From NCBI GenBank assembly GCA_964349125.1, contig CAYGFH010000001.1, positions 459,502-523,501 of the forward strand: a stretch of DNA of 64,000 nucleotides, written 5' to 3'. The DNA is from an uncultured Gammaproteobacteria bacterium (GTDB lineage Bacteria; Patescibacteriota; Microgenomatia; UBA10105; UBA927). The position numbers were made by a program, and so were the translations under genes. A model generated the notes under the pieces. The model did not search any database and was not told the DNA's origin. It saw only the letters and a program-made list of their open reading frames with translations. Shown in pieces: positions 28,865-63,038 of this stretch. How positions within the stretch are numbered: position 1 is the stretch's first letter; each line of letters opens with the position of its first letter.

Positions 28865-31225
28865 TTATAATCGTGCACGGTGCACTATTTCAGCCTCAAC
28901 CAGCTCTCTGGATCGTCCATATTTCAATCTGGATAATTGAATAATTGCCTCGGCAACTTTTTTATTTTTTTGCGCATTTACTTTTGTCATGTCTTTTGTC
29001 AAATCTATACTAAATGGTTTTACGGGTTCGTTGCGCACACTTGTTTTGACATACGCGTTAAATTTATCAATATTTATGAGATCAGCTTCATTGAATGTCG
29101 GTTGAAATTCATGTTGCAGATAATTGGCATCGGTGACTCCGACCCGGAATGATGCCACTGTTCCTACGTTGCCAAATACAGCATTTTTCACTTCTTCTTC
29201 CATCTGTCCGATAAATTGATTTGCAACGATAAGATTTAATCTGTATTTACGGGCTTCGGACAATATTTGGGCAAAATCCGGTGTAGCAAAATTCTGAAAT
29301 TCATCAACATATAGGAAGAAATCTCTTCGCTTGTCTTCAGGAATTTCCTGCCGGCTCATGGCAGAAATCAAAATTCTTGGTACCAAAATGAGCCCCAAGA
29401 AATTACTGTTTTCTTCACCGATTTTACCCTTCGCTAAATTGATCAGCAATATTTTCCCCTCATCCATGACATTTCTAAAGTTATAGCTGGATTGGGATTG
29501 TCCTATGATATTCCGCATCATTTTATTGGTGACAAACCGGCCGAACTTTGAAACGATGTAATCGAGGACCTCAGACTTATGAAAATCTGCGGTTTGTGCG
29601 ATTTGATCTGTCCAGTACCGTTTAATGATAGGATCCGTTAATTTGGGTAACAGTTCTTGTACAAAAGCTGCATCCGTTAGCACACGGACCACTTCGATGA
29701 ATGTATTTCCCGGTTCTACCATAACAGTCAACATCGCGTTTCGAACCGCATGTTCAAAGCGTGGACCTATAATACCTGTTTTTTGAGGGTCGTACAGTTT
29801 GTACATAAGCCCTACGATCGATGTGACTACGAAATGCTTTTGCTCTTCGGTGGAGGCTTCAAGCATGTTTAGCCCCATTGGCCGCTCAAGATCAGATGGG
29901 TCAAAATAAATAACATCTTCGGCGCGTTCCGGAGGAATACGGTTAAGAACCCCTTCTACCAAATCTCCGTGTGGATCAACAACCGCAACCCCTTTGCCGT
30001 CACGGATGTCCTGAATAATCATCTCTTCCAATAACTGCGATTTTCCAGTACCAGTTTTTCCAATCACATACATATGTCTTCGTCTATCATCATCTCCAAT
30101 ATAGATTGGACGTTCTACTCCGCGATACCTCGAGGTGCCCAAAAACATGCCGCTCATTGGGATTTGTGAGGGCGCCGGCGCCCGTTTTGCATTTAGCCAA
30201 AAAATGTGCGCGGTTTCGATAGACTTGTTCGGAAAATGGAAAATGGTTGCAAGTTCGTCGCTGTTTAGCACGCTATACTGACGAAATAATGGCACGTTCA
30301 TAATTGGGAAGTAGCGGTAGATAAAATCAACAATAAACAAATGCTTAAACGGCATTTTTACTTTTGTAAAATGATTGTAATCAGATGCGAACTGACTGAA
30401 ACTCGTCAATATGTTATCCAAATGCATATGCGAATCCTCTTTTGTATTTGCTGACACGACACATCGGATGACAACATTAAATCCGGGTTTCCCAGTTTTT
30501 TGTTCTATAGCCTCGAGTGATTTGGGATCCACCTTAAAACTTGCTTTCTCAGGGTTTGATTCATCTTTTTTCACATGCGATATATATGACCGTCCCTGAT
30601 CTCTCCATTTTCCATCAGCAGGTTGCACTAAAATCTGGATAGCAGCTCCTTCACCTGGTTTCATTTTTGCCATAACGGAGGTAATAGATGACAACGGATC
30701 AGTCGGCAAATCTCGATATATTCGAAGTGGATTATAATCACTTGAGCTTAAACAAAGAGCAGCAAACGACACCTTCCCCTGCTCACTAAATATTGAATAC
30801 TCTTCCACGAGCTTTATATCGGCCCCGGGGTATGCACCATGAATTTGTTTTTCCACCAAATCCATAAGTTTTTTGGGAACTGCAACATAGAACCGAATAT
30901 CTTCGGATCTCGCTACTATTTCAAATGATAAATGCTCTTTTGGTTTCAGAAATGACCACATATCCGAATGCGCAATACTATGCAAACTGGAAAAAAGCTG
31001 CTCAGCAACATCAATTTTCACTTCGTTATCACGCGGAACGGCCACCTGCAAAAGCACTGTTTCAAGAGAATGCTCCTCACGGTTGCGGTATTTCCATAGG
31101 AGAAACACTATGTATCCGATCAGTGCGAGGATACCGACAAAAAATAGTATTAGACCCAGACTAATTCCAAGCATTTGAAGCCTATACGTGAGATCCGCGA
31201 GTTTTTCCGTCATCTGTGTATCCAT
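28865..31225 (-). CDS. membrane-anchored VirB4/TraC/HerA-superfamily (DUF87-type) ATPase
   Basis: N-terminal TM helix 'ISLGLILFFVGILALIGYIVFLLW', ~350-aa non-ATPase domain, then Walker A 'YVIGKTGTGKSQLL', 'VDPHGDL' motif, Walker B 'FLYVDEFQNF' and 'ARKYRLNLIVANQ', as in VirB4/HerA/TraD-type translocation ATPases. Confidence 0.7.
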   Translation of the reverse strand: MDTQMTEKLADLTYRLQMLGISLGLILFFVGILALIGYIVFLLWKYRNREEHSLETVLLQVAVPRDNEVKIDVAEQLFSSLHSIAHSDMWSFLKPKEHLSFEIVARSEDIRFYVAVPKKLMDLVEKQIHGAYPGADIKLVEEYSIFSEQGKVSFAALCLSSSDYNPLRIYRDLPTDPLSSITSVMAKMKPGEGAAIQILVQPADGKWRDQGRSYISHVKKDESNPEKASFKVDPKSLEAIEQKTGKPGFNVVIRCVVSANTKEDSHMHLDNILTSFSQFASDYNHFTKVKMPFKHLFIVDFIYRYFPIMNVPLFRQYSVLNSDELATIFHFPNKSIETAHIFWLNAKRAPAPSQIPMSGMFLGTSRYRGVERPIYIGDDDRRRHMYVIGKTGTGKSQLLEEMIIQDIRDGKGVAVVDPHGDLVEGVLNRIPPERAEDVIYFDPSDLERPMGLNMLEASTEEQKHFVVTSIVGLMYKLYDPQKTGIIGPRFEHAVRNAMLTVMVEPGNTFIEVVRVLTDAAFVQELLPKLTDPIIKRYWTDQIAQTADFHKSEVLDYIVSKFGRFVTNKMMRNIIGQSQSSYNFRNVMDEGKILLINLAKGKIGEENSNFLGLILVPRILISAMSRQEIPEDKRRDFFLYVDEFQNFATPDFAQILSEARKYRLNLIVANQFIGQMEEEVKNAVFGNVGTVASFRVGVTDANYLQHEFQPTFNEADLINIDKFNAYVKTSVRNEPVKPFSIDLTKDMTKVNAQKNKKVAEAIIQLSRLKYGRSRELVEAEIVHRARL

Positions 31226-31226
31226 A

Positions 31227-31712
31227 TTATTCTTTCACACGGATAAATTTGCCATGTACATTTTTGAGTGTTATATGCAAAAATTTAAGTCTCCTCACAC
31301 ACCATTCAGCTAGCCAGCGCATGGAATTCGTTACTTCCTGATGTAAACCGACAGCAATCTGATCATCAGATAACGGTAATACAACTGTAGACGTTGTTTG
31401 CACTGGAATGTTAGCACCGGATGCTGATACCCCCAATTTCGCGATCGGAGGCGGTATTGGAATTGTCGTGGGTTGTATGCGAACGCCGGCTGACTGCACC
31501 TCCTTTGGTAATTCAAACTCTTGACCACTTGCATTAGACAACACTTCACGCTGGTCTGGCATCCCGCTTACTGGCGCCGTTTCTTTGCTCCCGTGAGAAA
31601 TCGCCCCACCGGAAGTAGGTTCATCAGATGATTTCCGCGTATTTCCCGCAACTACCGGCTGATTTGGAGATGATGAAATTGGAGGTGAAGCTATATTTGG
31701 CAGGTCATTCAT
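31227..31712 (-). CDS. Pro/Ser-rich low-complexity protein, unknown function
   Basis: 161 aa; 'PPISSSPNQP ... TIPIPPPIAK'; stop/start overlaps with both neighbours suggest operon membership. Confidence 0.45.
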   Translation of the reverse strand: MNDLPNIASPPISSSPNQPVVAGNTRKSSDEPTSGGAISHGSKETAPVSGMPDQREVLSNASGQEFELPKEVQSAGVRIQPTTIPIPPPIAKLGVSASGANIPVQTTSTVVLPLSDDQIAVGLHQEVTNSMRWLAEWCVRRLKFLHITLKNVHGKFIRVKE

Positions 31713-33811
31713 AGTTCTATCATAGCATGACTAAACGCATAAATAACACCACTAGGTACTGTGATATTTCCGGGTGTCCGTATTCCAATGGATACTGTGT
31801 TGGGATATATTTTTTTATCTTTTTTCTTTTTTGTCTTTTGCTTGTTTGTGCCTGTGGACTGCGCAAAACCCTGCTCGCGAATCATAGCCAAATGCCAGAT
31901 GATCGCAAAAAGCAACCAGGAAGAGGGTTCTTTTCGGATAATACCATCAGGTGAATCCTTTATGGATTCATACAGCGACATGGGAGATGTGGCTGTATCT
32001 GTACCGTGTTCACGTTGCCGTTGTAGTACTGATTGAATCTTTTCCAGGGATGAAAAATAGTTCATATATTTATATAGCAGCATCACGGTTACGGCAAAAG
32101 AAAATTGTCTGACATGCTGAGCTTCTGAGATAGACTCCGATGCGCGTCTTGTATCATTGATTTCTCTGTCTGTATACGCACGCGGCACTGCTGTTGGTTC
32201 AGAGTTCTGATTATGATGGATAAGATCAAGAAGTATCTCATGCAGCGATTCTATCCGTTCTTGCACATGCTTTTTTTCTGTGGTGACAATGTGCATCCGC
32301 TCTGATTGTGACGCCTGGTGCAATATTTGAAGCATATCAACTGTCAGTATCAGCGTTTCATAATCCACGGATGATGAATCATTGACACCGGATTTCTGTT
32401 GTTCCAACAGTTCATTCGTTACTTCTATTAATTCAGCTGATATTCCTTTTTCTTCTAATATATGTGTTGTTTTATCCTCCTTTATGATCACGACAGGAAC
32501 ACTACTATCTTCCGAATTTTCATTATGTGATTCCGCAGCAGTCGGTACCTGGTGTTCTATGGAGAATTCCTCCATATTTCCTGATAGCACATCCAAGGCA
32601 AAAAGCGCGCCTCCTATTGGCATGGATTCATCCGAGATACTTCGCACCAGAATTTGCTCTGCTGTTTTGGTTATTTCATACGCTTCTTGCACGTCTGTAT
32701 ATAGGAAATCTGATTGTTCTGTAGATAGCTGCAATGAATCCTTGGCGATTTGCTTCCATACTGATACCAATTCAGATTCAGAGAGATGCAGTGATTCATC
32801 CGGCTCTGTTGATAACAGGAGCAACGATTCTGTATGCTCTTGCTGCATAAGTAAAGCTTCAACAGTGGAAGGGATTACCCAATCTTCATTACTAAATTCA
32901 GGCGCGATGATGGATCTCGATTCATCATCATGTCTCTTGGAAATATACTCAAACACACCACTAATCGTTTCGACAGAACCCTCATAGATATGTTTTGCCG
33001 TGGAATCTGTCGTCTGGCTTGCCAGTTCGATGACGCCGAATACTGCCATAGCCAATCCCTGTCGCACATTTTCCTGTGCCAACATGGTTTCCAACGCTTT
33101 AGCAGCGTACTGTTCCACTTGCCTATTTCGTTCCTCAAGAAGTAATGGATATGCTGATGTTGACCGGGATAATCTATCTAAATACTCGTTTTGTGATGAA
33201 TCACCCGATAAACTATTTTTTGCTTCCTCGAAAATCTGATTGACACCAACTTCCTTTGTGAAAAAAAGGGCCTGATTTTGGTCAGCACTCTTAGATATAT
33301 CTGCCCCACCTTGCAATCCAAGTCCGGTAAAGAATCTCTGTAACTGAGCATCTGTACCTTTGAATTCAACCGCTAACGCCTTAATCGTATTATTTTCTCC
33401 TCTTGAATATAAGTAGACAAAACTTCTTCCATATCCTAAATCAGGACTTATTGTTGCAGCCATTTTTACATCTGGATTGCTCATGAGCCCGGACTCTGCA
33501 TGGAGCGTTCTTCCAATTCTGTCGCCGCCAATATCATTGGGATCATTGAGTTCTTCAACTGTTTTTCCACCACCATCAACCCATCGTCCTGCTTCGTTTA
33601 TATTATAATCAAATGGAATTAACGGTTGATGCAAAATAAATTCGTGCTGCCAACCGACTGCATCCTTCGCAAGCGCTTTGGACGCTGCATCCATCGATGC
33701 TCCCTGCTGGAGAATACCACTTAAGTAATCTTGTGACTTATCATCATTCCATTCGTGACTCATAATGACCAAAAAAAACTTCTCAGGTACTCGAGAAGTG
33801 TATATAAACAT
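31709..33811 (-). CDS. large hypothetical protein (700 aa), no recognisable domain; Lys-rich C-terminal tail
   Basis: Long ORF with coding-like composition, co-directional and overlapping (ATGA) with the downstream gene; acidic/Ser-rich middle, 'KQKTKKKKDKK' near the C-terminus. Confidence 0.6.
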   Translation of the reverse strand: MFIYTSRVPEKFFLVIMSHEWNDDKSQDYLSGILQQGASMDAASKALAKDAVGWQHEFILHQPLIPFDYNINEAGRWVDGGGKTVEELNDPNDIGGDRIGRTLHAESGLMSNPDVKMAATISPDLGYGRSFVYLYSRGENNTIKALAVEFKGTDAQLQRFFTGLGLQGGADISKSADQNQALFFTKEVGVNQIFEEAKNSLSGDSSQNEYLDRLSRSTSAYPLLLEERNRQVEQYAAKALETMLAQENVRQGLAMAVFGVIELASQTTDSTAKHIYEGSVETISGVFEYISKRHDDESRSIIAPEFSNEDWVIPSTVEALLMQQEHTESLLLLSTEPDESLHLSESELVSVWKQIAKDSLQLSTEQSDFLYTDVQEAYEITKTAEQILVRSISDESMPIGGALFALDVLSGNMEEFSIEHQVPTAAESHNENSEDSSVPVVIIKEDKTTHILEEKGISAELIEVTNELLEQQKSGVNDSSSVDYETLILTVDMLQILHQASQSERMHIVTTEKKHVQERIESLHEILLDLIHHNQNSEPTAVPRAYTDREINDTRRASESISEAQHVRQFSFAVTVMLLYKYMNYFSSLEKIQSVLQRQREHGTDTATSPMSLYESIKDSPDGIIRKEPSSWLLFAIIWHLAMIREQGFAQSTGTNKQKTKKKKDKKIYPNTVSIGIRTPGNITVPSGVIYAFSHAMIEL

Positions 33812-48889: not shown

Positions 48890-51130
48890 GTGAAACAAAA
48901 GAAAATAAAACCGGTATTACTTTTACCCAAAGTGGCAGCCTCTGCCGATCTCCCCCCGGCTCCTGCAACGCATCGCCTGAAATGGACATATATATTTTGG
49001 GTGATACCTCTGAGTATTATTATTGCAATATATGTACTTATATTTCGGGGCCTCCCTTCCCCTACGTCACTCGGCACATATGAGATACCGCTTGCAACCA
49101 AAGTATATGATCGAAACGGTAAACTGCTCTATGATATTTTTGCTGATCAAAACAGGACGGCCGTACCGCTATCGAAAATTCCAAAGCACTTACAACATGC
49201 AACTATAGCAATTGAAGATAAGGATTTTTATAACCATCAGGGTATTAATCCCGTGGGAGGAATGCTTCGTGCCGTTACCGCAACCATTACAGGGAGAAAA
49301 CTTCAGGGAGGATCCACCATCACCCAACAGCTCGTGAAATCTGCACTTCTCACGCCTGAGAGAACAGTGATCCGCAAAGTAAAGGAAATTATTCTGGCAA
49401 TTTGGGTAGAAGCAATATATTCGAAGGATAAAATCCTGGAGTTATATCTAAATCAGGTTCCGTACGGCGGAACTGCATGGGGAGTCGAATCAGCTGCAGA
49501 GCGTTACTTTGGCAAAAAAGTCGAAGAACTCACGCTTGCCGAATCGTCCCTTTTGGCAGGACTGCCACAAGCACCGACCCTCTATTCCCCGTTCGGAACC
49601 CATCCGGATTTGGCAAAAAACAGGCAGCGAGACGTGTTAAAACGCATGGTGACAGACAAATATATTACACAGGAGCAAGCTGATGCGGCGGCTAAAGAGG
49701 AACTTGTATTTAAAAGGGATATTGGACTGAAAGCCGGACATTTTGTCATGTATGTGAAAGATCAGCTGGTCCAAAAACTGGGTGAAGCGGTTGTGGAAAA
49801 AGGTGGTTTGAAAGTTATCACAACCCTTGATCTGGAGCTCCAAGAATACGCGCAGGCAACAGTTGCAGCAGAAGTTGAGAAAATCAAATACCTCAGGGTT
49901 GGAAATGGCGCGGCACTCATCACAAAACCGGCAACAGGAGAGATACTCGCCATGATAGGCAGTACAGACTATTTTGCCACACCGTCGGGAAGCTATAATG
50001 TCACGACAGCGCTTCGACAACCGGGATCATCGATTAAACCTATTAACTACGCTATCGGCATAGAAACAAAAAAAGTTACGCCAGCAACAATTTTTCTTGA
50101 TATACCGACCTGTTTTGGCGTCGTGAACCAATCGTCCTACTGCCCAAAAAATTATGACGGTAAATTTCATGGGCCGGTTGCCCTTCGTATGTCTCTCGGC
50201 AATTCTCTAAACATACCAGCCGTAAAAATGCTGAAAATTAACTCAGTTGAAACAATGATTGCATCAGCAAGCGGCTTTGGGCTTGACACGTTGAAAGATC
50301 CGAAGCAGTACGGACTATCGCTCACACTCGGTGGCGGTGAGGTGCATATGACTGATATGGCTGAAGCATTTGGCGTATTTGCAAATGGCGGTATACGAAA
50401 AAATCTTGTTTCAATACTAAAAGTTACCGATAAAAACGGTAAGGTTATCGAAGAATATAAAGATCAAAACCTTAAGCAGGAAATACCATCACAACTACTG
50501 CTTCGTGGACCTCGGGTGCTTTCGCCCGAAACGGCGTTTCTTATCTCGCACATGCTTCTGGACAACAACGCGCGCATGGGGGCATTCGGTCCAAATTCAG
50601 AACTGGTAATTCCAAAACATGCGGTATCGGTAAAAACAGGCACCACAGATGATTTGAGAGACAATTGGACAATTGGATATACACCGCAATATTTAGTCGC
50701 AACATGGGTCGGCAATAACGACAATTCCCCGATGAATCCGTCTCTTGTATCAGGTGTCACGGGTGCGGCTCCAATATGGCATAAGCTCATGCAAAAAATG
50801 CTTGAAGGAAAGAGCGATGTATGGCCAAAACAACCGGATGGGATCGTTGGGGCAAGGGTATGCTCGCTTTCAGGATTACTCCCACCGAATGATGGAGACG
50901 ATCCAGGATGTGCCATACGGTTCGAGTATTTTATAAAAGGGACAGTGCCGACAGAGCGTGAACAACTAAAAAAATCAGTTCTTATTGACAAAGATACCGG
51001 AGATATCGTTCAACCGGGCAAAGCGGGAGCGAATGTTGAACCCCAGGAGAAGCTAATTTTGAAGGATCCGCTCTCTGAATATTGCCTTGATTGCCAACAC
51101 CCGGAAAACACCAGAACCTACATAAAATAA
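48890..51130 (+). CDS. class A penicillin-binding protein (bifunctional glycosyltransferase/transpeptidase, PBP1A)
   Basis: Signal-anchor, GT51 motifs 'ATIAIEDKDFYNHQGIN' and 'GGSTITQQLVKS', transpeptidase SxxK 'GSSIKP', SxN 'LGNSLN', KTG 'KTGTTDD'. Confidence 0.92.
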   Translation: MKQKKIKPVLLLPKVAASADLPPAPATHRLKWTYIFWVIPLSIIIAIYVLIFRGLPSPTSLGTYEIPLATKVYDRNGKLLYDIFADQNRTAVPLSKIPKHLQHATIAIEDKDFYNHQGINPVGGMLRAVTATITGRKLQGGSTITQQLVKSALLTPERTVIRKVKEIILAIWVEAIYSKDKILELYLNQVPYGGTAWGVESAAERYFGKKVEELTLAESSLLAGLPQAPTLYSPFGTHPDLAKNRQRDVLKRMVTDKYITQEQADAAAKEELVFKRDIGLKAGHFVMYVKDQLVQKLGEAVVEKGGLKVITTLDLELQEYAQATVAAEVEKIKYLRVGNGAALITKPATGEILAMIGSTDYFATPSGSYNVTTALRQPGSSIKPINYAIGIETKKVTPATIFLDIPTCFGVVNQSSYCPKNYDGKFHGPVALRMSLGNSLNIPAVKMLKINSVETMIASASGFGLDTLKDPKQYGLSLTLGGGEVHMTDMAEAFGVFANGGIRKNLVSILKVTDKNGKVIEEYKDQNLKQEIPSQLLLRGPRVLSPETAFLISHMLLDNNARMGAFGPNSELVIPKHAVSVKTGTTDDLRDNWTIGYTPQYLVATWVGNNDNSPMNPSLVSGVTGAAPIWHKLMQKMLEGKSDVWPKQPDGIVGARVCSLSGLLPPNDGDDPGCAIRFEYFIKGTVPTEREQLKKSVLIDKDTGDIVQPGKAGANVEPQEKLILKDPLSEYCLDCQHPENTRTYIK

Positions 51131-51176
51131 AATGAGCCTTGTTACTAGCCTATAGATTATGGTATAAACACATTCT

Positions 51177-53726
51177 ATGGATCGTCATAGCAGTGTGAAC
51201 AGCGAAAAGCAGCCTCAAATACCATTTTATATATTCCCTATTATCGTACTTATATGGGTATTTATAGCCATAGGATCCTTAGTCAGACGGACAATAAGCG
51301 CGCTTTTCTACCCTTTCGTACTGGCTTATAGCACTGTAAAAACATTGTTGTATGAGCTGGTAGCCGGCATACGAAGCTGGATTCAGGAAAAAAAACATCT
51401 CCGCGCGAGCAAAAAACAGATAAAACCCCCATCTGTTGAAGCAATTCGCAGACAACAGGTCCAATTAGGGTACAAAAGCTCAAAACTATCGCTTACAGAG
51501 CAATTTAACCTTCTCAGAGAGGCAACCCGAAGCACGTTTATATCACTGAAGCAGAAGATTTCATTGCACCAACAGGCCAAGAGAGAAAGATTGGCACGAA
51601 AGAAAGAGAAAATGAAGCAGGTTTCCATCGCACAAAAAGAGATACCACGCACCGGGCATTTTCAGGCATTCAAGAGTTGGTTTTCAGGATTAGCCGTCCA
51701 CAAGCACCAAAGAAGTGTACCAGATACTGGCAGTATGCAGATTCCAACCAAAGGCACGTCCATTGATATGTGGAAGTCGTTTATCACGGGAATTGCCTGC
51801 ACAATTATTTTTGTATTTGCACCATACGAAGGGTATCACTGGCTTATGGCGCTTCCAAACCCGCAACTGCTTTCCAGGCGCGATCTTCAGGTAACCACGA
51901 AAATTTTTGATAGAAAAGGCGTGCTTCTCTACGAGATCTATCAGGACCAAAATAGAACGCCCCTTCCGCTTGAATCAATACCAAAAACTATTATACATGC
52001 GACTATTGCTATAGAAGATAGAGATTTTTACAGACATCAAGGCATATCACTCAAGGGCATCATACGTGCGTTTAGAGAGACCGTATTTAACAAGCGTGTT
52101 CAGGGAGGATCTACTATCACACAACAATTGATAAAATCAGCGCTCCTGTCCCCTGAAGTAAAAATAACAAGGAAAATTAAAGAGGTATTATTGGCGTTTT
52201 GGGCTGAGAGACTGTATTCGAAGGACGAATTACTGGAAATGTATCTTAATCAGGTTCCATATGGAGGGACTGCATGGGGCATCGAAGCCGCAAGCCAAAC
52301 ATTTTTTGGCAAAAGCGCAACCGAATTAAATCTAGCAGAGGCGAGCTTACTCGCAGGTCTTCCCGCAGCACCTACAGAGTACTCCCCGTTTGGCTCGCAT
52401 CCCGAAAAAGCATTTGACAGGCAAAAAGAAGTGCTTCGTCGGATGCAGGAGGACAGATATATCACTAAGGAACAGGCAGATGAAGCACGTGAAACACAAA
52501 TAGTGTTTGCTACACCAAATACGGCTATTCGGGCACCCCACTTTGTTATGTATGTAAAAGAACTGCTTGAAAAGCGGTATGGACAGAGACTGGTAGACCA
52601 GGGAGGATTGCAGATAAAAACATCACTAGATATATCCCTTCAGGAGAAAACTGAAGAACTTGTTTCAAAACATATTGATGCACTTGCATCACTCAATGTA
52701 GGTAATGGCGCCGCACTGGTTACTAATCCAAAAACAGGAGAAATTCTCGCAATGGTAGGAAGCAAAAATTACTTTGATTTAGAATCAGACGGAAACGTAA
52801 ATGTGACAACGTCACTGCGGCAACCGGGATCATCCATAAAAGTTGTTAACTACGCAGCCGCGCTCGAGAACGGCTACACTGCTTCAACAATTATCGATGA
52901 TTCTCCGATCACGTTTCCAAATGTGGGAAGCACTCCGTACGCTCCAGTCAATTATGACGGCAGATATCACGGAGCGGTTCCGTTTCGCTATGCGCTAGCA
53001 AATTCGTACAATATTCCTGCTGTTAAAATACTCGCCAAAATTGGCGTACCGACTATGATTGCAGCCGGAAAAAATATGGGAATTTCAACATGGAACGATG
53101 AAAATAGATTTGGGCTGTCACTCACACTCGGCGGAGGTGAGGTCACTATGCTTGATATGACAAAAGTCTATGGCACGCTGGCAAATGAGGGTAGAAAGAC
53201 AGAATTGCACCCGATTCTTGAGGTCACAGACTACGCGGGTCGCGTGTACGAAAGAAATACTTCTCCTCGAAGTGTCCAGGCACTGAAGCCTGAAACCGCT
53301 TGGATTATTTCAAACATCTTAAGTGATAATACGGCAAGAATTCCTGCATTTGGTCCAAATTCAAGTCTCGTTATACCGAACAAAACAGTATCAGTAAAAA
53401 CGGGAACCACGGACAATAAGCGTGACAATTGGACTATCGGGTACACGCCATCATATGTTGTCTCCGTATGGGTGGGAAATAATGATAACACGCCAATGAA
53501 TCCGTATCTCACTTCAGGGATTACGGGAGCAGCTCCGATTTGGCATGATATAATGGTCGAATTGCTGAAAAATTCGCCGGATGAAGTGGCAAAAAAACCT
53601 GATACTGTTGTTTCAATCCCCTGTTATTTCGGGCGAACAGAATTTTTTATCCAAGGAACACAACCGCAAAGTGGCAGGTGCGCGCCGATGCCGACCCCTA
53701 GCGTATCTACAACACCAACACCCTAG
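51177..53726 (+). CDS. class A penicillin-binding protein paralog with ~230-aa two-TM lysine-rich N-terminal extension
   Basis: GT51 'ATIAIEDRDFYRHQGIS', 'GGSTITQQLIKS', TPase 'GSSIKV', 'LANSYN', 'KTGTTDN'; N-terminus has TM1 (~res 18-38), K/R/Q-rich segment, TM2 (~res 200-220). Confidence 0.9.
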   Translation: MDRHSSVNSEKQPQIPFYIFPIIVLIWVFIAIGSLVRRTISALFYPFVLAYSTVKTLLYELVAGIRSWIQEKKHLRASKKQIKPPSVEAIRRQQVQLGYKSSKLSLTEQFNLLREATRSTFISLKQKISLHQQAKRERLARKKEKMKQVSIAQKEIPRTGHFQAFKSWFSGLAVHKHQRSVPDTGSMQIPTKGTSIDMWKSFITGIACTIIFVFAPYEGYHWLMALPNPQLLSRRDLQVTTKIFDRKGVLLYEIYQDQNRTPLPLESIPKTIIHATIAIEDRDFYRHQGISLKGIIRAFRETVFNKRVQGGSTITQQLIKSALLSPEVKITRKIKEVLLAFWAERLYSKDELLEMYLNQVPYGGTAWGIEAASQTFFGKSATELNLAEASLLAGLPAAPTEYSPFGSHPEKAFDRQKEVLRRMQEDRYITKEQADEARETQIVFATPNTAIRAPHFVMYVKELLEKRYGQRLVDQGGLQIKTSLDISLQEKTEELVSKHIDALASLNVGNGAALVTNPKTGEILAMVGSKNYFDLESDGNVNVTTSLRQPGSSIKVVNYAAALENGYTASTIIDDSPITFPNVGSTPYAPVNYDGRYHGAVPFRYALANSYNIPAVKILAKIGVPTMIAAGKNMGISTWNDENRFGLSLTLGGGEVTMLDMTKVYGTLANEGRKTELHPILEVTDYAGRVYERNTSPRSVQALKPETAWIISNILSDNTARIPAFGPNSSLVIPNKTVSVKTGTTDNKRDNWTIGYTPSYVVSVWVGNNDNTPMNPYLTSGITGAAPIWHDIMVELLKNSPDEVAKKPDTVVSIPCYFGRTEFFIQGTQPQSGRCAPMPTPSVSTTPTP

Positions 53727-55527: not shown

Positions 55528-55622
55528 AGCCAGAGTGAGAAACACGCACGCATCTACCCTTCAGACCTGTGTAAAACACGTAGTTACATATATAGGCAGG
55601 TATAAGCATGGCTCCCTCAACC

Positions 55623-55650
55623 AAAAAGCGCCCCTCAGGGCGCTTTTTTG
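55623..55650. terminator. bidirectional rho-independent terminator between convergent uppP and pilin genes
   Basis: A-run, 7-bp stem 'agcgccc/gggcgct' (55627-55644) with loop 'ctca', followed by T6 (55645-55650). Confidence 0.6.
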
Positions 55651-55671: not shown

Positions 55672-56130
55672 TTATCTTGTTACTGAAATTGTTGCTCCTA
55701 GCTCTGCTGCCGGCGCTGATACCGTGATACGGTTGTCTGCTGCGCTTCTCACTACTGTGTATGCAGTATCATATGCCGCTGTACAATCCGTAACAGGTGC
55801 TCCGTTATTTGTTAATGGATCGACAGGTAATGCAGCCAGATATTGCGTCATAAGGGAAGAACAGATATCCGCCCCTGTGTTTGCGACATTCTGCGAGGCC
55901 GTTGTAATGCCTGTTGGCAATGTGCCCCGATTATCAGCGGCGAACTGTCCGATGGCATTCAAAATCGCGTTTACGTCACTGGCGCGTTTTGTATTATTTG
56001 CCTGCGAGAACTGACGAGCAGGATTTATGGCGATTAATGTGATTGCCAAAAGTACCGCCAAGATACCGATGACAACGAGCAACTCGATGAGCGTAAAACC
56101 TTTACGCCCCATAGGCAGTGTGTTTTTCAT
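55672..56130 (-). CDS. type IV pilin (probable major pilin, PilA-like)
   Basis: Class III signal 'MKNTLPMGRKG/FTLIELLVVIGILAVLLAI' (prepilin cleavage/N-methylation motif with Glu+5); 152 aa; two C-terminal Cys (disulfide loop). Confidence 0.85.
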   Translation of the reverse strand: MKNTLPMGRKGFTLIELLVVIGILAVLLAITLIAINPARQFSQANNTKRASDVNAILNAIGQFAADNRGTLPTGITTASQNVANTGADICSSLMTQYLAALPVDPLTNNGAPVTDCTAAYDTAYTVVRSAADNRITVSAPAAELGATISVTR

Positions 56131-56181
56131 ATACTTTTACCGTATCTTACTTTCTATTTCCTTGTCAATAGTGACAATAGA

Positions 56182-56868
56182 TCAGCGATACTGCAGATAC
56201 ACCACGACACTTAGAGCCAGAAGAAGAAAACCGAACACAGATAGCAATAATGGCAGACTGGATTTTTTTGTCGAGGGTGAGTTAACATCTCCGGTAGAGA
56301 TATTCGTACTGGGTGCACTGTATTCGAATGAATCGAGTATATTAAATTTCGACAACTGATCAAGATGTTCCGTAATATATGTGGCGAGAGGAACATTTAA
56401 CGCATGTTCTTTTTCATACTGCCCCAACGCAAAAGCAGGAATGATTGATTTAACAGGTAACCCCTGAAGCAGAAACCCTTGGTGCATCCCATCAAAGAAC
56501 GCTTTATTAAACGCAATGGCTCGTTTACCATTTTTTATCGGGTACACTTTTGACCAAATCAACTCATATGGCACCATATCGAAGAATTTCAGGATTTGTG
56601 TTTCCATTTGTGGAAATTCCGATGCCAAGAATATTTTCTCAAAATATACTGATTCAGAGAAGATAAAGACGATCTGTGATCCTACTAACCCATATTGCTT
56701 TACCCATTGCTTAATCAAGGAATAGAGACCATCCTTCGATAAAATTTCAAAGTCCGAAACAATTGTGTTCGGTATTTGCACCGTAATAATTCCTGGCGCT
56801 CCTCCACCATACATATAGATCGCAAATCGATCAACAAATATTAACAATAATGATTTTTGATTAAACAT
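56182..56868 (-). CDS. hypothetical protein with C-terminal TM anchor, pilus-locus associated
   Basis: 228 aa; C-terminal 'LPLLLSVFGFLLLALSVVVYL'; located between pilin genes in the same orientation. Confidence 0.4.
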   Translation of the reverse strand: MFNQKSLLLIFVDRFAIYMYGGGAPGIITVQIPNTIVSDFEILSKDGLYSLIKQWVKQYGLVGSQIVFIFSESVYFEKIFLASEFPQMETQILKFFDMVPYELIWSKVYPIKNGKRAIAFNKAFFDGMHQGFLLQGLPVKSIIPAFALGQYEKEHALNVPLATYITEHLDQLSKFNILDSFEYSAPSTNISTGDVNSPSTKKSSLPLLLSVFGFLLLALSVVVYLQYR

Positions 56869-56902
56869 ACGTCAGATAAGTATACGATACTAGTATAAGT
56901 TA

Positions 56903-57295
56903 TTATATTTCCTGCCAGGAAATTAAGTTCAATACCCCATTTGTAAATGTAGCAGTGACGCGCAACGCCTTTTGATACGAACCTCGTGTTCCGGTGGAAA
57001 TAATGGTTTTGGTTGACCCACCCGTGACAGAAATCATTACGGAATCATCCCCAATTGACATCGTCTCTCCACTATACGTCGTATCTCTCAGAAGTCGCAA
57101 CAATGCATTTTCCACACCATTTTCCGCCAATTCCAGAGCGTGATTTCCTTCCTCTTCCTGCATAGTGTTAAAAGAGCTCGACACAGTAAGGGCAACCGCT
57201 GTGGTTACAAGAGTCACAGCTATAACCATATAGAATAACAAGATGATAAGAGCCTGACCAGACTCTCTACTAATATGATTTAGATCAAATTTCAT
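56903..57295 (-). CDS. PilX-like minor pilin / pseudopilin (atypical N-terminus)
   Basis: 130 aa; N-terminal hydrophobic 'SGQALIILLFYMVIAVTLVTTAVAL' like PilX-type pseudopilins, lacking the canonical Glu+5. Confidence 0.45.
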   Translation of the reverse strand: MKFDLNHISRESGQALIILLFYMVIAVTLVTTAVALTVSSSFNTMQEEEGNHALELAENGVENALLRLLRDTTYSGETMSIGDDSVMISVTGGSTKTIISTGTRGSYQKALRVTATFTNGVLNLISWQEI

Positions 57296-57298
57296 ATG

Positions 57299-57793
57299 CT
57301 ATCTCAACGCAAAAGTTGTACTGAATGAGCGATTTTCTACTCCTTGTCTTCGCGTAATCAAGCTGGTGAGCGTGAAATCAATTTTAATACTCTGTTTACC
57401 TCCGCTAGTACCCAAGCGTTGAAATGTCATATTGGATACCGATGTATCTACATTATTTAAACGTATCGTCCCCAGAGCATTGGTTACCTCAAAATTACCA
57501 TTATTTGCTGCATATGTATGAGAATTTCCGTTAATTGTCAATTGTAATACTCCCGAAGAGCTTGCAAGAGTGTCTGGAATAGTAATGCCAGAGGCTCGCC
57601 CCATATCATAGGATAATCTCGAAAAAACATATCGCCCGTCCTGCGCCAGTGAAGAGTGTGATTCAGATGATAATTGAGTCTCGATAAGTGATGAGAACAA
57701 CGCAGTAAGTACCGCTAAAAATGACATAAGTATTGCCCCATATATCATCATTTCAACGAGTGTAAAACCAGATTGAGCATGCGTATGTTTCAT
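57299..57793 (-). CDS. type IV minor pilin (PilW/PilV-like)
   Basis: Prepilin motif 'AQSG/FTLVEMMIYGAIL'; 164 aa. Confidence 0.8.
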   Translation of the reverse strand: MKHTHAQSGFTLVEMMIYGAILMSFLAVLTALFSSLIETQLSSESHSSLAQDGRYVFSRLSYDMGRASGITIPDTLASSSGVLQLTINGNSHTYAANNGNFEVTNALGTIRLNNVDTSVSNMTFQRLGTSGGKQSIKIDFTLTSLITRRQGVENRSFSTTFALR

Positions 57794-57796
57794 AGT

Positions 57797-59737
57797 TTAA
57801 GGCGAGTAGTTTATGACAATATCCTCAAAAATCGGTGATTGCAGCCGATCCAGCGTATCAAAATACACTTTATATCTAAGACACTGGGCGGGATTTTTAT
57901 ATGGACCCGAGGAACTCAGCGGCAACGCGCTAGACGTTGCAAAAAACGTTGTATCTGTTTTATCCGGTCCGATAAAAGTATAAGCTGCATTACTGCAGCT
58001 ACCTGACACCGCATCGGTTATTGCAAACTGGTATCTGATGTTAGTCTGATTCGGAATAGTTGATTGGACATCAAACCGATTAAATGTAGCTGATTTTGTA
58101 GCATCAAATATGGAAGAGGTAAATGTCCCTGACACCGCATACTGACCCCCGGGACCGCCCTCTATAATCTTCAGCTCACTGCTTGAATCGCCAGTAATGA
58201 TATATGAATAGGCATCTCCGTCAGATTCAAGAATCGATGACACTCCGTTCACTCCACTATCAATGTTTAGCCCACCACAATATGATGGATTTGCCTCATT
58301 GACGATATTGATCGCCTGATACTCTTCTCCGCCTATACCCACGATAATTGCTTTATTTCCCGGAACAATAGTTATACCCTTTGGGTTCATGCCGCTGGTA
58401 TCGTAACTTCCGATCGGAGTATGGTTTCCTGATTTAGTGCTTATATCGAGAATGAACAATTCTCGTTGTGTGAACGAGGTTTTTGTTGCAAGATACGCTC
58501 GGGTTGCGGTCGGGTTCACAAATACATCAATTCCCTCCTGGGCAGTAAGCTGGGCTTGTCCGACGACTACAAGGTTTGAGGTATTGCTTACATCAAGAAT
58601 TTGCAATTGAGTTGATGTTGAATTTACTGCCACATACGCAAACGTCCCGACAACCATTATCTTATTTCCTATACCAGCAAGCGTCACACCATCCGCATCC
58701 AGCGCGTTTCTCGAACCTGACTTACTGGATAGATCAAATGTATATAACGTATTGCCAGCGGTCATGTACCCGGTGTTCCCAGAAACATACACACTGTTTC
58801 CATTCCCATTTCCCGGCGCATTAAAGTATCCGGACTCGCTATATTTTCCTGTGGAGGGATTGTATGAGGTTAAATCTATGATTTCTATCTCTTTTGTGTT
58901 CGTATCCGTCGCCAGGTATGCGTAATTCGATTCACCGAACACACCATTTGTTTTATATCCGTCAAACTCACCCGCAATGCTCGCGACAGGAGGACGATCA
59001 TTACTGATCATAACATTTGCAAACGAGACCCCTGATGCGTTGTCACCGGTCCCGGCAAACACTCTCCCCTCAATAGATGTCACAGCATTTGCTACACCAC
59101 TTTTAGGCAAATCGTGAGCAGCGATAGATAAGTTAGGAGAACACCAATCCCCGCCGCCCCCGGCACCAAGCGTTACTTCCCCACCGTTTGTATTTGTGAT
59201 TGTCGAATTCACAAGTGCTCCTGAAGAAAAATCAGATTGAGATGATTGCGTATACACCTGATTAGTAAATCTTGATATATACAGTTGCGATGTGACAGAG
59301 TAAGGAAACAATGCTGACCAAGCGACTGTAATGGTAATCGCTTTGGTAGATGGATCTATTGTTCCTCCCTGTGAGACAAGCGATCCCGATTCATCTCGAT
59401 ACGCATCTGCAATTTCAATCGATCTTGTTTGAGAGTTGATCGTTTCTGCACCTGGAACCAAAATCCAATCTGATCCTGATACTACAGGATGATATGTCCC
59501 GTTTGCGGAAATATATTCCCATCCTCGCTCACGGATTATGCGCAAAGCCTCACGAGCCTCTCTGACAAGCATGGTTGCCTGAGATCGTTCGATTTGTTGA
59601 ACTTTTCCTTGACTGGCACTCACAAATCCGGTAATAAGCGCCGGCAATAACACTGTCGTCAATGCCAGCGCAAGCAACAGCTCCACGAGTGCGGCGCCAC
59701 GTTGCACATGTACTCTATGATTCTTGCGTTTCTCCAT
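57797..59737 (-). CDS. giant minor pilin / pilus-tip adhesin candidate (646 aa) with prepilin-type N-terminus
   Basis: 'QRGAALVELLLALALTTVLLPAL' pilin-like N-terminal helix followed by ~600-aa Gly/Thr/Ser/Asn-rich beta-rich domain. Confidence 0.7.
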   Translation of the reverse strand: MEKRKNHRVHVQRGAALVELLLALALTTVLLPALITGFVSASQGKVQQIERSQATMLVREAREALRIIRERGWEYISANGTYHPVVSGSDWILVPGAETINSQTRSIEIADAYRDESGSLVSQGGTIDPSTKAITITVAWSALFPYSVTSQLYISRFTNQVYTQSSQSDFSSGALVNSTITNTNGGEVTLGAGGGGDWCSPNLSIAAHDLPKSGVANAVTSIEGRVFAGTGDNASGVSFANVMISNDRPPVASIAGEFDGYKTNGVFGESNYAYLATDTNTKEIEIIDLTSYNPSTGKYSESGYFNAPGNGNGNSVYVSGNTGYMTAGNTLYTFDLSSKSGSRNALDADGVTLAGIGNKIMVVGTFAYVAVNSTSTQLQILDVSNTSNLVVVGQAQLTAQEGIDVFVNPTATRAYLATKTSFTQRELFILDISTKSGNHTPIGSYDTSGMNPKGITIVPGNKAIIVGIGGEEYQAINIVNEANPSYCGGLNIDSGVNGVSSILESDGDAYSYIITGDSSSELKIIEGGPGGQYAVSGTFTSSIFDATKSATFNRFDVQSTIPNQTNIRYQFAITDAVSGSCSNAAYTFIGPDKTDTTFFATSSALPLSSSGPYKNPAQCLRYKVYFDTLDRLQSPIFEDIVINYSP

Positions 59738-59738
59738 A

Positions 59739-60302
59739 CTATTGAACTTCGGTTATAACACCATATGCATTTATATATATAGTCTTCGTCACACTACTGT
59801 TGGATTCACTGAGTGACACGGTATTTGCACCCTGAGTATATCCTGCTATCTCGCCGCTTCCGGACAAAAAAACAATTGACTGACCGGGGAATCCGATAAA
59901 ATTCGCATACACAGGAGTTTTAAATTGAATAACGGTATTTGTCGGATCGCTTTGGGTATATGATATCCCAGAAAACAAAGTGTATTGATTTGATGCAATA
60001 TGTACTCCATATCCAGGAGAAACAATACCATTATTTGTCTTACCCATCATTGCTTTTGATTGCTGGCTTCTCAAATCAGCTATAAAAATGTCAACAGCTT
60101 CCGTTAAATTCGCTGACCGCTGTGAACCAAGTACGCTCATGGTAGCAAGACTTAAAAGTGTAAGCATAATACTGATAACTACTAATGTTTCCACAAACGT
60201 AAATCCCAGTCTCCGAATACTGCTTTTTCTATATGAAGAACAATTGATATATCCGTATATTTCTTTTACATCCGCATTACCAGCATGTGTGAGTGAAGAC
60301 AT
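59739..60302 (-). CDS. type IV minor pilin (FimT/GspH-like)
   Basis: 'RRLG/FTFVETLVVISIMLTLLSL' prepilin motif; the track ORF has an unusually long 33-aa leader, so the true start may be an internal non-ATG codon. Confidence 0.7.
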   Translation of the reverse strand: MSSLTHAGNADVKEIYGYINCSSYRKSSIRRLGFTFVETLVVISIMLTLLSLATMSVLGSQRSANLTEAVDIFIADLRSQQSKAMMGKTNNGIVSPGYGVHIASNQYTLFSGISYTQSDPTNTVIQFKTPVYANFIGFPGQSIVFLSGSGEIAGYTQGANTVSLSESNSSVTKTIYINAYGVITEVQ

Positions 60303-60303
60303 A

Positions 60304-61356
60304 TTATCTGGTACCTACCTGACTGATTAAACCGTATATTGGTGAAATAATCGCGAGCATCATACCTCCAACTGCAAGCCCTACAAATACCAATAAAATT
60401 GGCTCGAGAAGGGCCGTAAGTGTTTTTAATGTATTGGATACCTGATACTCAAAATAATCAGAAATATCCTGCATGGATTTATCGAGAGAACCAGTTTTTT
60501 CTCCCGCTTCCATAAGCTTAATCATGATGGATGGTATATACCCTTTGGCAGCACGAAACCCTTCAGATAATGACTTCCCTGAAAAAACCATGTCACGCGA
60601 CTGCGCAATAATCTTTGAGGTACGCTCCTTAACGACCACATCCTTCGTCAGTTCCAGTGCTTGAGTTATGGGAAGACCGGAAGATAACAGTAGATATAAA
60701 CTTCTAGAAAATCTTGTGATATCAATTTGCTCAACCAGTGTGGAGATAATTGGTAATGAAAAAAAGAAATTCAAAAATATTTTTTTTTGTTTTTTGTACA
60801 ACAAATAGAACAGGAAAAAAACTACTATAGTACCAAGAAGAACGGGTATAGTCTGTTTTAAAAGAAGATCTGAAACAAACATCATCATTCGGGTTGGAAG
60901 GGGCAACGTAATATGCATTCGTAAAAATACTGTACTTATTTTCGGAACAACAAACGTAAGTATCATCAAAAGCACTCCGGTGAAAACCACAACGATAAAC
61001 GAAGGGTACATCATTGCTGAGCGAATTTTATCGTTGAATTCAATGTCCTTTTGTACTGTTCGCTTGAGGTCCCGTAGGGTAACATCCAGTGTTCCTGCTT
61101 CTTCAGATGCTTTTATTACATTTACGGTAACTTTATCAAAAACCTGAGGGAACTTGATAAGTGTTTGATGCATATGTTTTCCTTGCATCAGATCATCATA
61201 CATAGTGTCCAATATTATCTTTTGCCCGCCCTTCATATCTTCTCTGAGAGAATTAACTACTTCCAGGATTGGAATACCGGCGGTAAGCATGGTAGATAAA
61301 CTGCCGACAAATTCCAATTTTTCACTGCTGCTGATCGTAACTTTATCTTCTCTCAT
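60304..61356 (-). CDS. pilC: type IV pilus assembly platform protein PilC (GspF family)
   Basis: Two T2SSF repeats, three TM helices, 350 aa; 4-nt overlap with upstream pilB. Confidence 0.9.
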   Translation of the reverse strand: MREDKVTISSSEKLEFVGSLSTMLTAGIPILEVVNSLREDMKGGQKIILDTMYDDLMQGKHMHQTLIKFPQVFDKVTVNVIKASEEAGTLDVTLRDLKRTVQKDIEFNDKIRSAMMYPSFIVVVFTGVLLMILTFVVPKISTVFLRMHITLPLPTRMMMFVSDLLLKQTIPVLLGTIVVFFLFYLLYKKQKKIFLNFFFSLPIISTLVEQIDITRFSRSLYLLLSSGLPITQALELTKDVVVKERTSKIIAQSRDMVFSGKSLSEGFRAAKGYIPSIMIKLMEAGEKTGSLDKSMQDISDYFEYQVSNTLKTLTALLEPILLVFVGLAVGGMMLAIISPIYGLISQVGTR

Positions 61357-63038
61357 AAATTTTCCACTTTTGTGACACGTAATACTTCTTCGATTGTGGT
61401 AAATCCTTTTTTCACTTTATCCAGACCATCATCTAACATGGTATTCATACCTTCAGCTATTGCCTGTTTATTTATTTCATCCGAATCGCTGTTGAGAGAG
61501 ATAAGCCGCTTAATTTCTTTTGATACCTCAAGTACTTCAAATACACCGAGACGTCCTAGATACCCTGTTTTGTGACAGACTTTGCATCCGGCGCCAGCAT
61601 AGAGTGAGACCGTTTCGCCAGATCCGAAGTGTGAGTCGATCATATGGGGGGCAATGTGTTTTTCCAGTTCGGCTCGCGGCATCGTAATTTGAGCTTTACA
61701 TGAATCGCATATTTTTCGAAGTAACCTTTGGGCTATAATCAGATTCACAGTTGATGCCACAAGAAACGGTTCAACCTTCATATCGCTAAGTCTTGGTATT
61801 GCGGTTGCAGCATCATTTGTATGAAGTGTTGAAAGCACCAAATGTCCTGTCAGAGCTGCGTTTACCGCGATAGCTGCGGTTTCACTATCACGGATCTCTC
61901 CGACAAATATTATATTCGGATCCTGTCTCAGGATACTTCGTAGACCGTTCGCAAAAGTCAGGTTGGTCTTCACGTTTACCTGTACCTGACTCGCACCTTT
62001 TACTCTATATTCCACCGGATCTTCAATTGTTGTGATATTTTTATCACGGGTATTTAATATTTTTAAAATTGCATATATTGACGTGGTTTTTCCGGACCCT
62101 GTCGGGCCGGTGGATAAAATCATGCCGTACGATTTACTGTATGCGTTATTCACCTTTTTCAGATCGGGTTCATTCATGCCTAAATCCGCGAGTGAATACT
62201 CCCTCGAGTTTGAAGACAGAATACGGAGCACCGCCTTTTCCCCTTCCGAAACTGGGAGGATTGAGACACGTATATCAATTTGCTCCTCTTCAAGAGCAAT
62301 CCGCATTTTGCCGTCCTGTGCGCTTAAATGTTCATCCGTTCGAAGGCTGGAGAGTACTTTTATGCGTGTCATTATCCGGTCGTGTAATGCCTTTGGAACA
62401 CGAAGTACATCATGTAGGACACCATCTATACGAAACCGTATGAGGGAGTTATTCTCTTCAGGTTCTATATGAACATCCGATGATTTATCCTGATACGCAC
62501 TATCCAGTAACACATCGACAATTTTTGCGATAGGTAAATCATCTGAAACCAGTGTCGTTGCTTTTTTAATATCTTCGCGGAGCAATTCATCTATAGTCTT
62601 CTGGAGAACTTTTTTGTAAATCTGGAGCGTATTTTCCACATCCCTCTCGGTGGCATAGTATATGATTACTTTCTGATTCGTTTTTTTGGCTACCATGTCT
62701 ACCAGATCGGTAATTTTTGGATCGATCATGGCAATCTGCACACCATCCGGTACTCTGCCAAATACAACGGTTTTATACTTTCTGGCAATTTTTTCAGGTA
62801 TTATATGGAATACCTCTTCGGGGATAGCAACCTTTGATAACACGACAAACGGAACTTTGAGATACGATGCCACTATGGCACCAATTTGATCGTCAGAAAC
62901 CACCCCTTTATCTATTAGTTCATTCACAAAAGATCCGTGTGAAGCAATAGACTGATCTCGAACCTCCTGTATACGTTCTTGCGGCGCCACAGAATGTTCG
63001 ACTAGCAATGATTGAAGCTGGTCATCGGGCAGTATCAT
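61353..63038 (-). CDS. pilB: type IV pilus assembly ATPase PilB (GspE family)
   Basis: Walker A 'GPTGSGKTTS', Asp/His boxes, tetracysteine Zn site 'CDSCK...CKVCHKTGY', N1 domain. Confidence 0.93.
   Translation of the reverse strand: MILPDDQLQSLLVEHSVAPQERIQEVRDQSIASHGSFVNELIDKGVVSDDQIGAIVASYLKVPFVVLSKVAIPEEVFHIIPEKIARKYKTVVFGRVPDGVQIAMIDPKITDLVDMVAKKTNQKVIIYYATERDVENTLQIYKKVLQKTIDELLREDIKKATTLVSDDLPIAKIVDVLLDSAYQDKSSDVHIEPEENNSLIRFRIDGVLHDVLRVPKALHDRIMTRIKVLSSLRTDEHLSAQDGKMRIALEEEQIDIRVSILPVSEGEKAVLRILSSNSREYSLADLGMNEPDLKKVNNAYSKSYGMILSTGPTGSGKTTSIYAILKILNTRDKNITTIEDPVEYRVKGASQVQVNVKTNLTFANGLRSILRQDPNIIFVGEIRDSETAAIAVNAALTGHLVLSTLHTNDAATAIPRLSDMKVEPFLVASTVNLIIAQRLLRKICDSCKAQITMPRAELEKHIAPHMIDSHFGSGETVSLYAGAGCKVCHKTGYLGRLGVFEVLEVSKEIKRLISLNSDSDEINKQAIAEGMNTMLDDGLDKVKKGFTTIEEVLRVTKVENL

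Follow-up and report, generated by a model that had tools for sequence, protein, structure and literature searches.

The subject of this report is a group of eight genes at positions 55672-63038 of a 64-kb stretch of DNA (64,000 nucleotides of contig CAYGFH010000001.1, assembly GCA_964349125.1; hereafter, the window). The genes constitute one tightly packed operon and specify a type IV, or pilus-like, filament of an ultra-small Microgenomates/Gottesmanbacteria-like bacterium of the Candidate Phyla Radiation (CPR). Members of the CPR, or Patescibacteria, are thought to contact their hosts and scavenge DNA by means of pili, and to our knowledge their pilus machines have been studied only in Saccharibacteria. 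An earlier note on this DNA, made from its letters alone, had read the region as a compact type IV pilus locus of eight co-directional genes in a CPR host. The eight open reading frames (ORFs) were all found where it had placed them, on the minus strand, and its view of the host agrees with ours.

Operon layout and core machinery

The ORFs of the operon are collected in Table 1. Proceeding from pilB to the major pilin gene, they are separated by -4, 1, 1, 3, 3, 34 and 51 nucleotides (nt). Since the first of these gaps is negative, the PilB stop codon and the PilC start codon share the sequence ATGA, which is the 4-nt overlap noted earlier, and the two genes are translationally coupled. The hairpin at the other end of the operon lies where the major pilin gene and bacA converge and is likely a two-way intrinsic terminator that ends the operon. 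A promoter scan returned 22 sites against 23.7 in shuffled sequence and therefore no promoter is claimed; the same scan missed the terminal hairpin seen by RNAfold. An Rfam scan of the locus identified no RNA family, and repeats within it are at chance level.

Table 1. Genes of the filament operon and the hairpin at its downstream end, with positions in the window (aa, amino acids; a slash marks the predicted prepilin cleavage site)
Feature	Position	Strand	Basis
PilB-type ATPase gene, 561 aa	61353-63038	minus	ORF map
PilC-type platform gene, 350 aa	60304-61356	minus	ORF map
H-type (weak similarity) minor pilin gene, 187 aa	59739-60302	minus	G33/FTFVE
Modular giant minor pilin gene, 646 aa	57797-59737	minus	G14/AALVE
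Minor pilin gene, 164 aa, J-type by position and a weak ComGF match	57299-57793	minus	G9/FTLVE
K-type (PilX/GspK/ComGG-like) gene, 130 aa	56903-57295	minus	G13/QALII, without Glu5
Tail-anchored GspL/PilM-like gene, 228 aa	56182-56868	minus	Fold, one transmembrane segment
Major pilin gene, 152 aa	55672-56130	minus	G11/FTLIE
GC-rich hairpin between A6 and T5	55621-55649	.	RNAfold, downstream of major pilin

Both core proteins of a type IV filament, the ATPase and the platform, are readily recognized by Pfam. The 561-aa ATPase, of the hexameric PilB type, matches T2SSE (1.2e-127, 426 bits against a cut-off of 24.9) and begins with an MshEN/T2SSE_N domain (Pfam MshEN, 4.3e-10). It carries a Walker A motif, GPTGSGKT, at residue 311 and a tetracysteine site formed by C444, C447, C485 and C488, in agreement with its earlier description as a PilB of the GspE ATPase family. 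Its closest matches in the PDB are Geobacter PilB, Thermus PilF and Myxococcus PilB, which span residues 7-558, and alignments to GspE begin only at residue 113-165 (130-165 for the GspE structures). Among the NCBIfam models, type_IV_pilB (TIGR02538) aligns over its full length and scores 527 bits under a cut-off of 675.65, GspE scores 508 bits under 630.25, and ComGA scores 250 bits under 300; the long PilB-type N-terminal region is outside the reach of the 267-position ComGA model. Since all three scores fall under their cut-offs, the protein can be described from its sequence as a PilB-type ATPase that is the equivalog of no curated family.

The 350-aa platform matches Pfam T2SSF (1.8e-46, 157.6 bits) in two stretches, indicating a duplicated domain. 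Against the more specific models it scores 228 bits for NCBIfam GspF (cut-off 424), 204 bits for the Thermus PilC model (under cut-off) and 137 bits for ComGB (cut-off 240). The ComGB match runs end-to-end, from residues 12-344 of the protein to positions 2-331 of the 332 in the model, and the GspF and PilC models are matched only from about model position 60-70. Because the ComGB model is covered fully and the other two are joined late, the platform has a short, ComGB-like length.

Pilins and the tail-anchored protein

A class III signal (Gly-1, a hydrophobic helix and Glu+5) is carried by four ORFs, encoding proteins of 187, 646, 164 and 152 aa, and by no other among the 284 window ORFs of at least 50 aa from a six-frame search. 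They correspond to the three minor pilins and one major pilin counted previously. The motif G/FTLxE that had been ascribed to all four holds as G/xxxxE; Phe+1 is found in three, the exception being G/AALVE of the 646-aa protein. In homologue alignments, Glu+5 is invariant in all four families and Gly-1 in three of the four, with the 187-aa family showing Ser at -1 in one homologue. Including a 130-aa protein without Glu5, five pilin-type proteins are encoded at the locus, one major and four minor. An H-I-J-K set plus a major pilin is what has been listed for type IVa pili (T4aP), type II secretion systems (T2SS) and Com machines (PMC10191384).

The 187-aa pilin has an N_methyl motif and matches ComGD (4.6e-7) and GspH (1.1e-6) over residues 33-102, both under cut-off. 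Its leader, at 33 aa, has no in-frame ATG, GTG or TTG ahead of the Gly/Phe site, and the closest orthologues begin just 4-5 residues ahead of the cleavage site (MNQRG/F); either the leader is unusually long or translation starts at a non-canonical codon, such as ATT at codon 29. The 164-aa pilin matches N_methyl (1.9e-4) and, over its N-terminus only, ComGF (E 0.008), and its G9 and E14 are invariant among orthologues. The 152-aa major pilin has an 11-aa leader, an N_methyl match of 1.7e-8, a near-invariant N-terminal helix and invariant Cys90 and Cys116. Its top NCBIfam match is GspG at 38 bits (cut-off 88.85), and ComGC scores 25 bits (cut-off 75).

The 130-aa protein, previously called PilX-like, does have the features of a PilX/K-type subunit. 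Across nine orthologues G13 does not vary, and position +5 is taken by I, V, M or T and never by Glu; a pilin-like N-terminus with Gly-1 and no Glu5 is the combination seen in the tip-capping PilX_N/GspK/ComGG class. The family further conserves an AExGxENA helix and a C-terminal WxE, and a weak match to the GspK N-terminus (E 0.047) is its sole sequence link to the GspK class. In type IV filaments, the subunit that caps the minor-pilin tip complex has no Glu5 (PMC10191384), and by analogy the 130-aa protein is proposed as this cap. The earlier suggestion to assign each pilin with hidden Markov models (HMMs) thus yields only weak, sub-threshold matches to ComGD/GspH, ComGF, GspK and GspG. Since profiles of the 130-, 152-, 164- and 187-aa families, when searched against PDB sequences, recover the shared N-terminal pilin helix only, the H, I, J and K classes cannot be assigned by sequence.

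Turning to the 646-aa protein, a structural model (predicted local distance difference test score, pLDDT, 83.8) divides it into a pilin-type helix (residues 11-71), a small sheet (80-155), a seven-bladed beta-propeller (about 200-526) and a C-terminal beta-sandwich (536-645). The propeller comprises 28-29 or so strands between residues 202 and 526 and is built of LVIVD-type repeats. Four Cys are invariant in the family. More than 844 homologues share 55-60% identity with the protein and, where a taxon is named, come chiefly from Candidatus Gottesmanbacteria and Levybacteria; there are also variants about 1020 aa long. The family profile has no meaningful match among PDB sequences. In the closest relatives, those with PilB 79-92% identical, the orthologue is instead 813-827 aa long and just 33-37% identical overall (loci L002:6664-9105, L004:6572-9019 and L010:6648-9131). 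Pairwise alignment with this longer orthologue shows conserved pilin and C-terminal modules and a diverged propeller with large insertions, as though the propeller were exchanged or fast-evolving within one sub-lineage. The 646-aa type is retained in more distant genomes at 51-60% identity. Divergence of the propeller between retained flanking modules fits a ligand-binding module, and the 646-aa protein is probably the binding subunit at the filament tip. There is a precedent in Nanosynbacter lyticus TM7x (Saccharibacteria): the host-binding adhesin of its PilT-less type IV pilus, T4P-2, is a minor pilin of large size that carries a seven-bladed beta-propeller (PMC11623550).

The remaining gene encodes a 228-aa protein with an actin-like cytoplasmic domain at 5-175, a disordered linker, and then KKS and a transmembrane (TM) helix. 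Its one hydrophobic segment, residues 202-228, is at the extreme C-terminus, as expected of the C-terminal anchor proposed before. A family profile searched against 1.84 billion representatives collected 1219 clusters in two main length classes of about 220-230 and 350-375 aa. In the long form, a LytR_C domain follows the TM helix, so that a cytoplasmic domain, a TM helix and an outer domain succeed one another as in GspL; the 228-aa protein ends right after the helix, and GspM, the T2SS partner of GspL, is not present. A profile of 63 family sequences detected neither GspL nor PilM, so the link to them is at the level of fold and architecture, by which the modelled protein can be placed in the PilM/GspL class. 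A "GspL domain PilM" family, possibly the same as the 228-aa family, is among the CPR pilus components listed by Méheust et al. (PMC6744442). The idea of an unrelated membrane anchor was rejected in view of the conserved, confidently folded domain of 170 residues and its fixed place in the operon.

Conservation and neighboring genes

Related operons were gathered in two ways. One set consists of genomes or exact-protein look-ups, with a scan of genome contigs using the 228-aa alignment giving 8 loci, its patterns being over-specific. The order PilB-PilC-187-646-164-130-228-152 is kept in six complete genome-derived loci, with two more truncated and one rearranged, and one genome-derived locus comes from a Gottesmanbacteria metagenome-assembled genome (MAG). 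The other set, a metagenome scan seeded with the 646-aa family, added 80 loci, roughly 60 of which are long enough to judge gene order; nearly all of these have the same eight-gene arrangement. Some loci carry two or three tandem major-pilin genes at the downstream end of the operon (L039, L045, L051 and L056), compared with one in the window. In one relative (L011:1-11206) the operon is split: about 6 kb, with unrelated opposite-strand genes, separate the 164- and 130-aa genes from a downstream group, PilB-PilC-GspL-like-major pilin. In records L006-L008 and L011-L013 this CPR-type operon occurs in GTDB-representative MAGs titled "uncultured Gammaproteobacteria" or "Pseudomonadales", which are probably placeholder or wrong taxonomy labels.

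Median identities to the window proteins over 29 complete related loci show a clear gradient. Conservation is highest for the major pilin at 68%, followed by PilB (63%), PilC (56%), the 646-aa pilin (54%), the 130-aa protein (40%), the 164-aa pilin (39%) and the 187-aa pilin (35%), with the GspL-like 228-aa protein lowest at 25%. For a major pilin to be better conserved than its ATPase is unusual in exposed type IVa pili and nearer the behavior of GspG or ComGC.

Several components were looked for and not found. The single T2SSE-family ATPase of the window is PilB, with no second one among its 284 ORFs, and none that could serve as PilT was found in any flank (about 10 kb) of the roughly 60 related metagenome loci. 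Accordingly, the statement of the earlier note that the window has no retraction ATPase is borne out, as is the lack of a secretin; GspD, GspC and GspM were not recognized there. The claim that PilM, PilN, PilO and PilQ are all missing was correct for PilN, PilO and PilQ and needs amending for PilM, as the 228-aa protein belongs to the PilM/GspL class by fold; with this single GspL/PilM-fold protein in the 64-kb window, there is no PilM-PilN-PilO(-PilP) sub-complex. Partial Pfam scans of the window ORFs recognized no prepilin peptidase and no comEA, comEC or dprA. For the 147 ORFs flanking the metagenome loci, the 25 most frequent Pfam families listed do not include Peptidase_A24, PilM/N/O, T2SSE or Secretin. 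The most recurrent families are Response_reg (17) and Hpt (9). In a subset of the related operons, for example at L025, L039, L045, L051, L053, L056 and L012/L013, small genes for Hpt-domain proteins and response-regulator receivers stand directly upstream of pilB, and they are absent from the window; their position suggests phosphorelay control of the filament in the lineages that have them.

Around the operon in the window, PilB is preceded, at a distance of 74 nt, by a co-directional LUD-domain gene, an adjacency that just the closest relatives keep. On its other side the locus adjoins two class A penicillin-binding proteins in tandem (746 and 849 aa; 48890-53726, plus strand), and orthologues of both have Transgly plus Transpeptidase domains. 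In close relatives, this pair, bacA and an RRM-type RNA-binding protein are syntenic with the pilus locus. Farther away (28865-33811, minus strand) is a 786-aa TraG/VirD4-like coupling ATPase (TrwB_AAD_bind, DUF87, TraG-D_C), with co-directional 700-aa and 161-aa proteins without Pfam match upstream of it. These genes are possibly a remnant, or else a DNA-transfer module of CPR type, and might bear on DNA traffic.

Interpretation and comparison with known systems

Taken as a whole, the region probably encodes a type IV filament machine of a minimal, monoderm type, found in conserved form throughout Microgenomates. That it encodes a type IV filament is safe to say, and in this broad sense the type IV pilus of the earlier note is upheld; the narrower sense of a T4aP goes further than the evidence here. 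The operon is a conserved, lineage-specific form of a known machine and not a new kind of system, because the literature already describes CPR pili, their lack of a secretin and minor pilins that bear a propeller (PMC6744442, PMC11623550, PMC7143001). New are the modular 646-aa pilin, the synteny of about 60 loci without PilT, and the finding that conservation within the operon peaks at the major pilin.

From the genes, motifs, folds and synteny described above, we infer the following interactions between the parts, tip location and ligand. A prepilin peptidase encoded elsewhere would cleave the leaders after Gly. The 187-aa (H-like), 646-aa (I position), 164-aa (J-like) and 130-aa (K-like) subunits would then pre-assemble in the membrane as a priming complex, capped by the Glu5-less 130-aa subunit. 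The 228-aa protein may hold the PilB N-terminal domain at the membrane beside PilC, in the manner of GspL-GspE and PilM-PilB, while ATP-driven movement of PilC would build up the 152-aa major pilin underneath this complex. In this way the 646-aa pilin would present its beta-propeller and beta-sandwich at the filament tip, where they could bind a target, and the operon would operate without a dedicated retraction motor. Since TM7x provides a precedent and the propeller has diverged, the most likely ligand, by analogy, is one on the surface of a host or other cell; DNA is the main, and serious, alternative. Retraction, host binding and DNA uptake are all possible functions of the filament.

Four points weigh against the proposal of a minimal monoderm-type filament machine. 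In its very high conservation, the major pilin resembles T2SS and Com subunits more than it does exposed adhesive pili. The H, J and K labels are weak, being drawn from gene order, the Glu5 rule and HMM matches under threshold. The window, which comes from an 809-kb ENA metagenome contig (ena:ERZ27247837:k141_2193826), yielded no prepilin peptidase. Finally, a PilT could possibly act in trans from elsewhere in the genome.

The operon is a compact module that is common to hundreds of Microgenomates and contains every part but the prepilin peptidase. It stands out for having one GspL-like protein in place of PilMNO, for the beta-propeller that is fused to a pilin and presumably sits at the tip, and for the unusual conservation of its major pilin. 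Its small parts list may be of use for reconstituting filament assembly, and it provides a concrete candidate for a host- or DNA-binding subunit in an uncultivated lineage.

According to the earlier note, T2SS or Com features would count against a type IV pilus. On this question the evidence is mixed: the ATPase is T4aP PilB-like, but the gene order, GspL-like protein, five pilins, conserved major pilin, ComGB-length platform and lack of PilT and PilMNO by about 60 loci are comG/gsp-like. The comG genes run A-B-C-D-E-F-G and the gsp genes E-F-G-H-I-J-K-L. The order here (E, F, H-, I-, J-, K-, L-like, major pilin) is collinear with both, with the major pilin moved to the end.

Of the known systems, the Com pilus of Bacillus subtilis and Streptococcus is the closest competitor, and we regard it as a possible though doubtful identity. 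Under this explanation, the tip would capture DNA for ComEA/ComEC and so feed a nucleotide-auxotrophic cell, with PilT-free retraction as in streptococcal Com pili. The two share a monoderm host, a single operon led by the ATPase and platform, five pilins, no secretin, no PilT near any related locus and a platform that matches ComGB end-to-end, along with the ComGD and ComGF matches. The parts amount to the minimal Com set plus one GspL-like protein and minus the peptidase (PMC10191384). A conserved major pilin and tip protein would suit a universal ligand such as DNA, and DNA uptake through CPR pili is a standing hypothesis (PMC6744442). However, every Com model scores under its cut-off (ComGA 250/300, ComGB 137/240, ComGC 25/75 bits), and the ATPase is a full-length PilB type whose long N-terminal region, with its MshEN-class domain, goes beyond the ComGA model. 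Com machines have no membrane accessory protein (PMC10191384), yet a GspL/PilM-like membrane protein is conserved here. Further differences are the position of the major pilin gene, last instead of third, and the 646-aa modular protein in the I position. The lack of comEA, comEC and dprA among the window genes seen by partial Pfam scans also detracts from the Com reading, and a propeller swapped or diverged among close relatives would be odd for a DNA receptor.

A canonical retractile T4aP, in which PilT, PilD and PilM/N/O would be encoded elsewhere in the genome and the pilus would serve twitching and host attachment, is a little less credible still and we consider it unlikely. The tetracysteine PilB-type ATPase aligns end-to-end with T4aP PilB structures and has type_IV_pilB as its best NCBIfam model. 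The PilC platform, the minor-pilin set and the major pilin, with its short leader, Phe+1 and two invariant Cys resembling a T4a D-region, are likewise T4aP-like, and a beta-propeller at the tip recalls PilY1. PilT, PilM, PilN and PilO are common in CPR genomes (PMC6744442), and PilT, PilD and PilM occur in the pilus locus of another Microgenomates genome (PMC7143001). On the other side, the 64-kb window holds no PilT, PilD, PilN or PilO, and none of them recurs within about 10 kb of some 60 related operons; PilP and PilQ are missing from the same places. The machine is confined to a single operon that has its own PilM/GspL-class protein, PilB falls short of the type_IV_pilB equivalog cut-off (527 vs 675.65 bits), and the major pilin is the most conserved gene, unlike typical T4a pilins. 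The propeller is fused to a class III-signal pilin, whereas PilY1 is a separate protein in T4aP.

A T2SS-like endopilus, that is a short, non-exposed piston pushing folded proteins through the cell wall, is very improbable: a monoderm host has no outer membrane to cross, GspC, GspD (the secretin), GspM and GspO are missing, all Gsp models score under cut-off, the ATPase N-terminus aligns with PilB and not with the GspE N1E domain, the GspL-like protein ends after its TM helix, and a 646-aa tip pilin with a beta-propeller suits binding better than secretion. What it does explain is an E-F-(G)-H-I-J-K-L arrangement as in gsp operons such as pul and eps, with a GspL-fold protein and its TM helix after the K-type gene and long-form relatives of GspL architecture. 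It also fits the top matches of the major pilin and platform to GspG and GspF, the lack of a retraction ATPase such as PilT and the highly conserved major subunit.

Tentatively, the operon could also represent a clade of type IV filaments peculiar to the CPR and distinct from T4aP, Com and T2SS alike. Such a monoderm machine would retain the E-F-H-I-J-K-L order of comG/gsp type, with a single tail-anchored GspL-like protein replacing PilMNO and a tip adhesin fused to the I-position pilin. Were this true, and were PilB and PilC to branch near the split of Com, T4aP and T2SS, the operon would bear on the origin of GspL as a PilM-PilN-like protein and on the minimum accessory protein of a filament machine.

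For the minimal monoderm-type filament machine that we favor, an informative comparison is with T4P-2 of Nanosynbacter lyticus TM7x (PMC11623550). Both belong to CPR hosts, lack PilT at the machinery locus, have a large propeller-bearing minor pilin and include minor pilins that resemble T2SS pseudopilins. In TM7x, however, PilM2, PilN2 and PilO2 are encoded by separate genes and the pilins are in other loci, while here there is one operon and a GspL-like protein only. The propeller subunits differ as well: PilX2 of TM7x has RCC1 repeats and no canonical PilD signal, whereas the 646-aa pilin combines LVIVD-type repeats with canonical Gly-1 and Glu+5.

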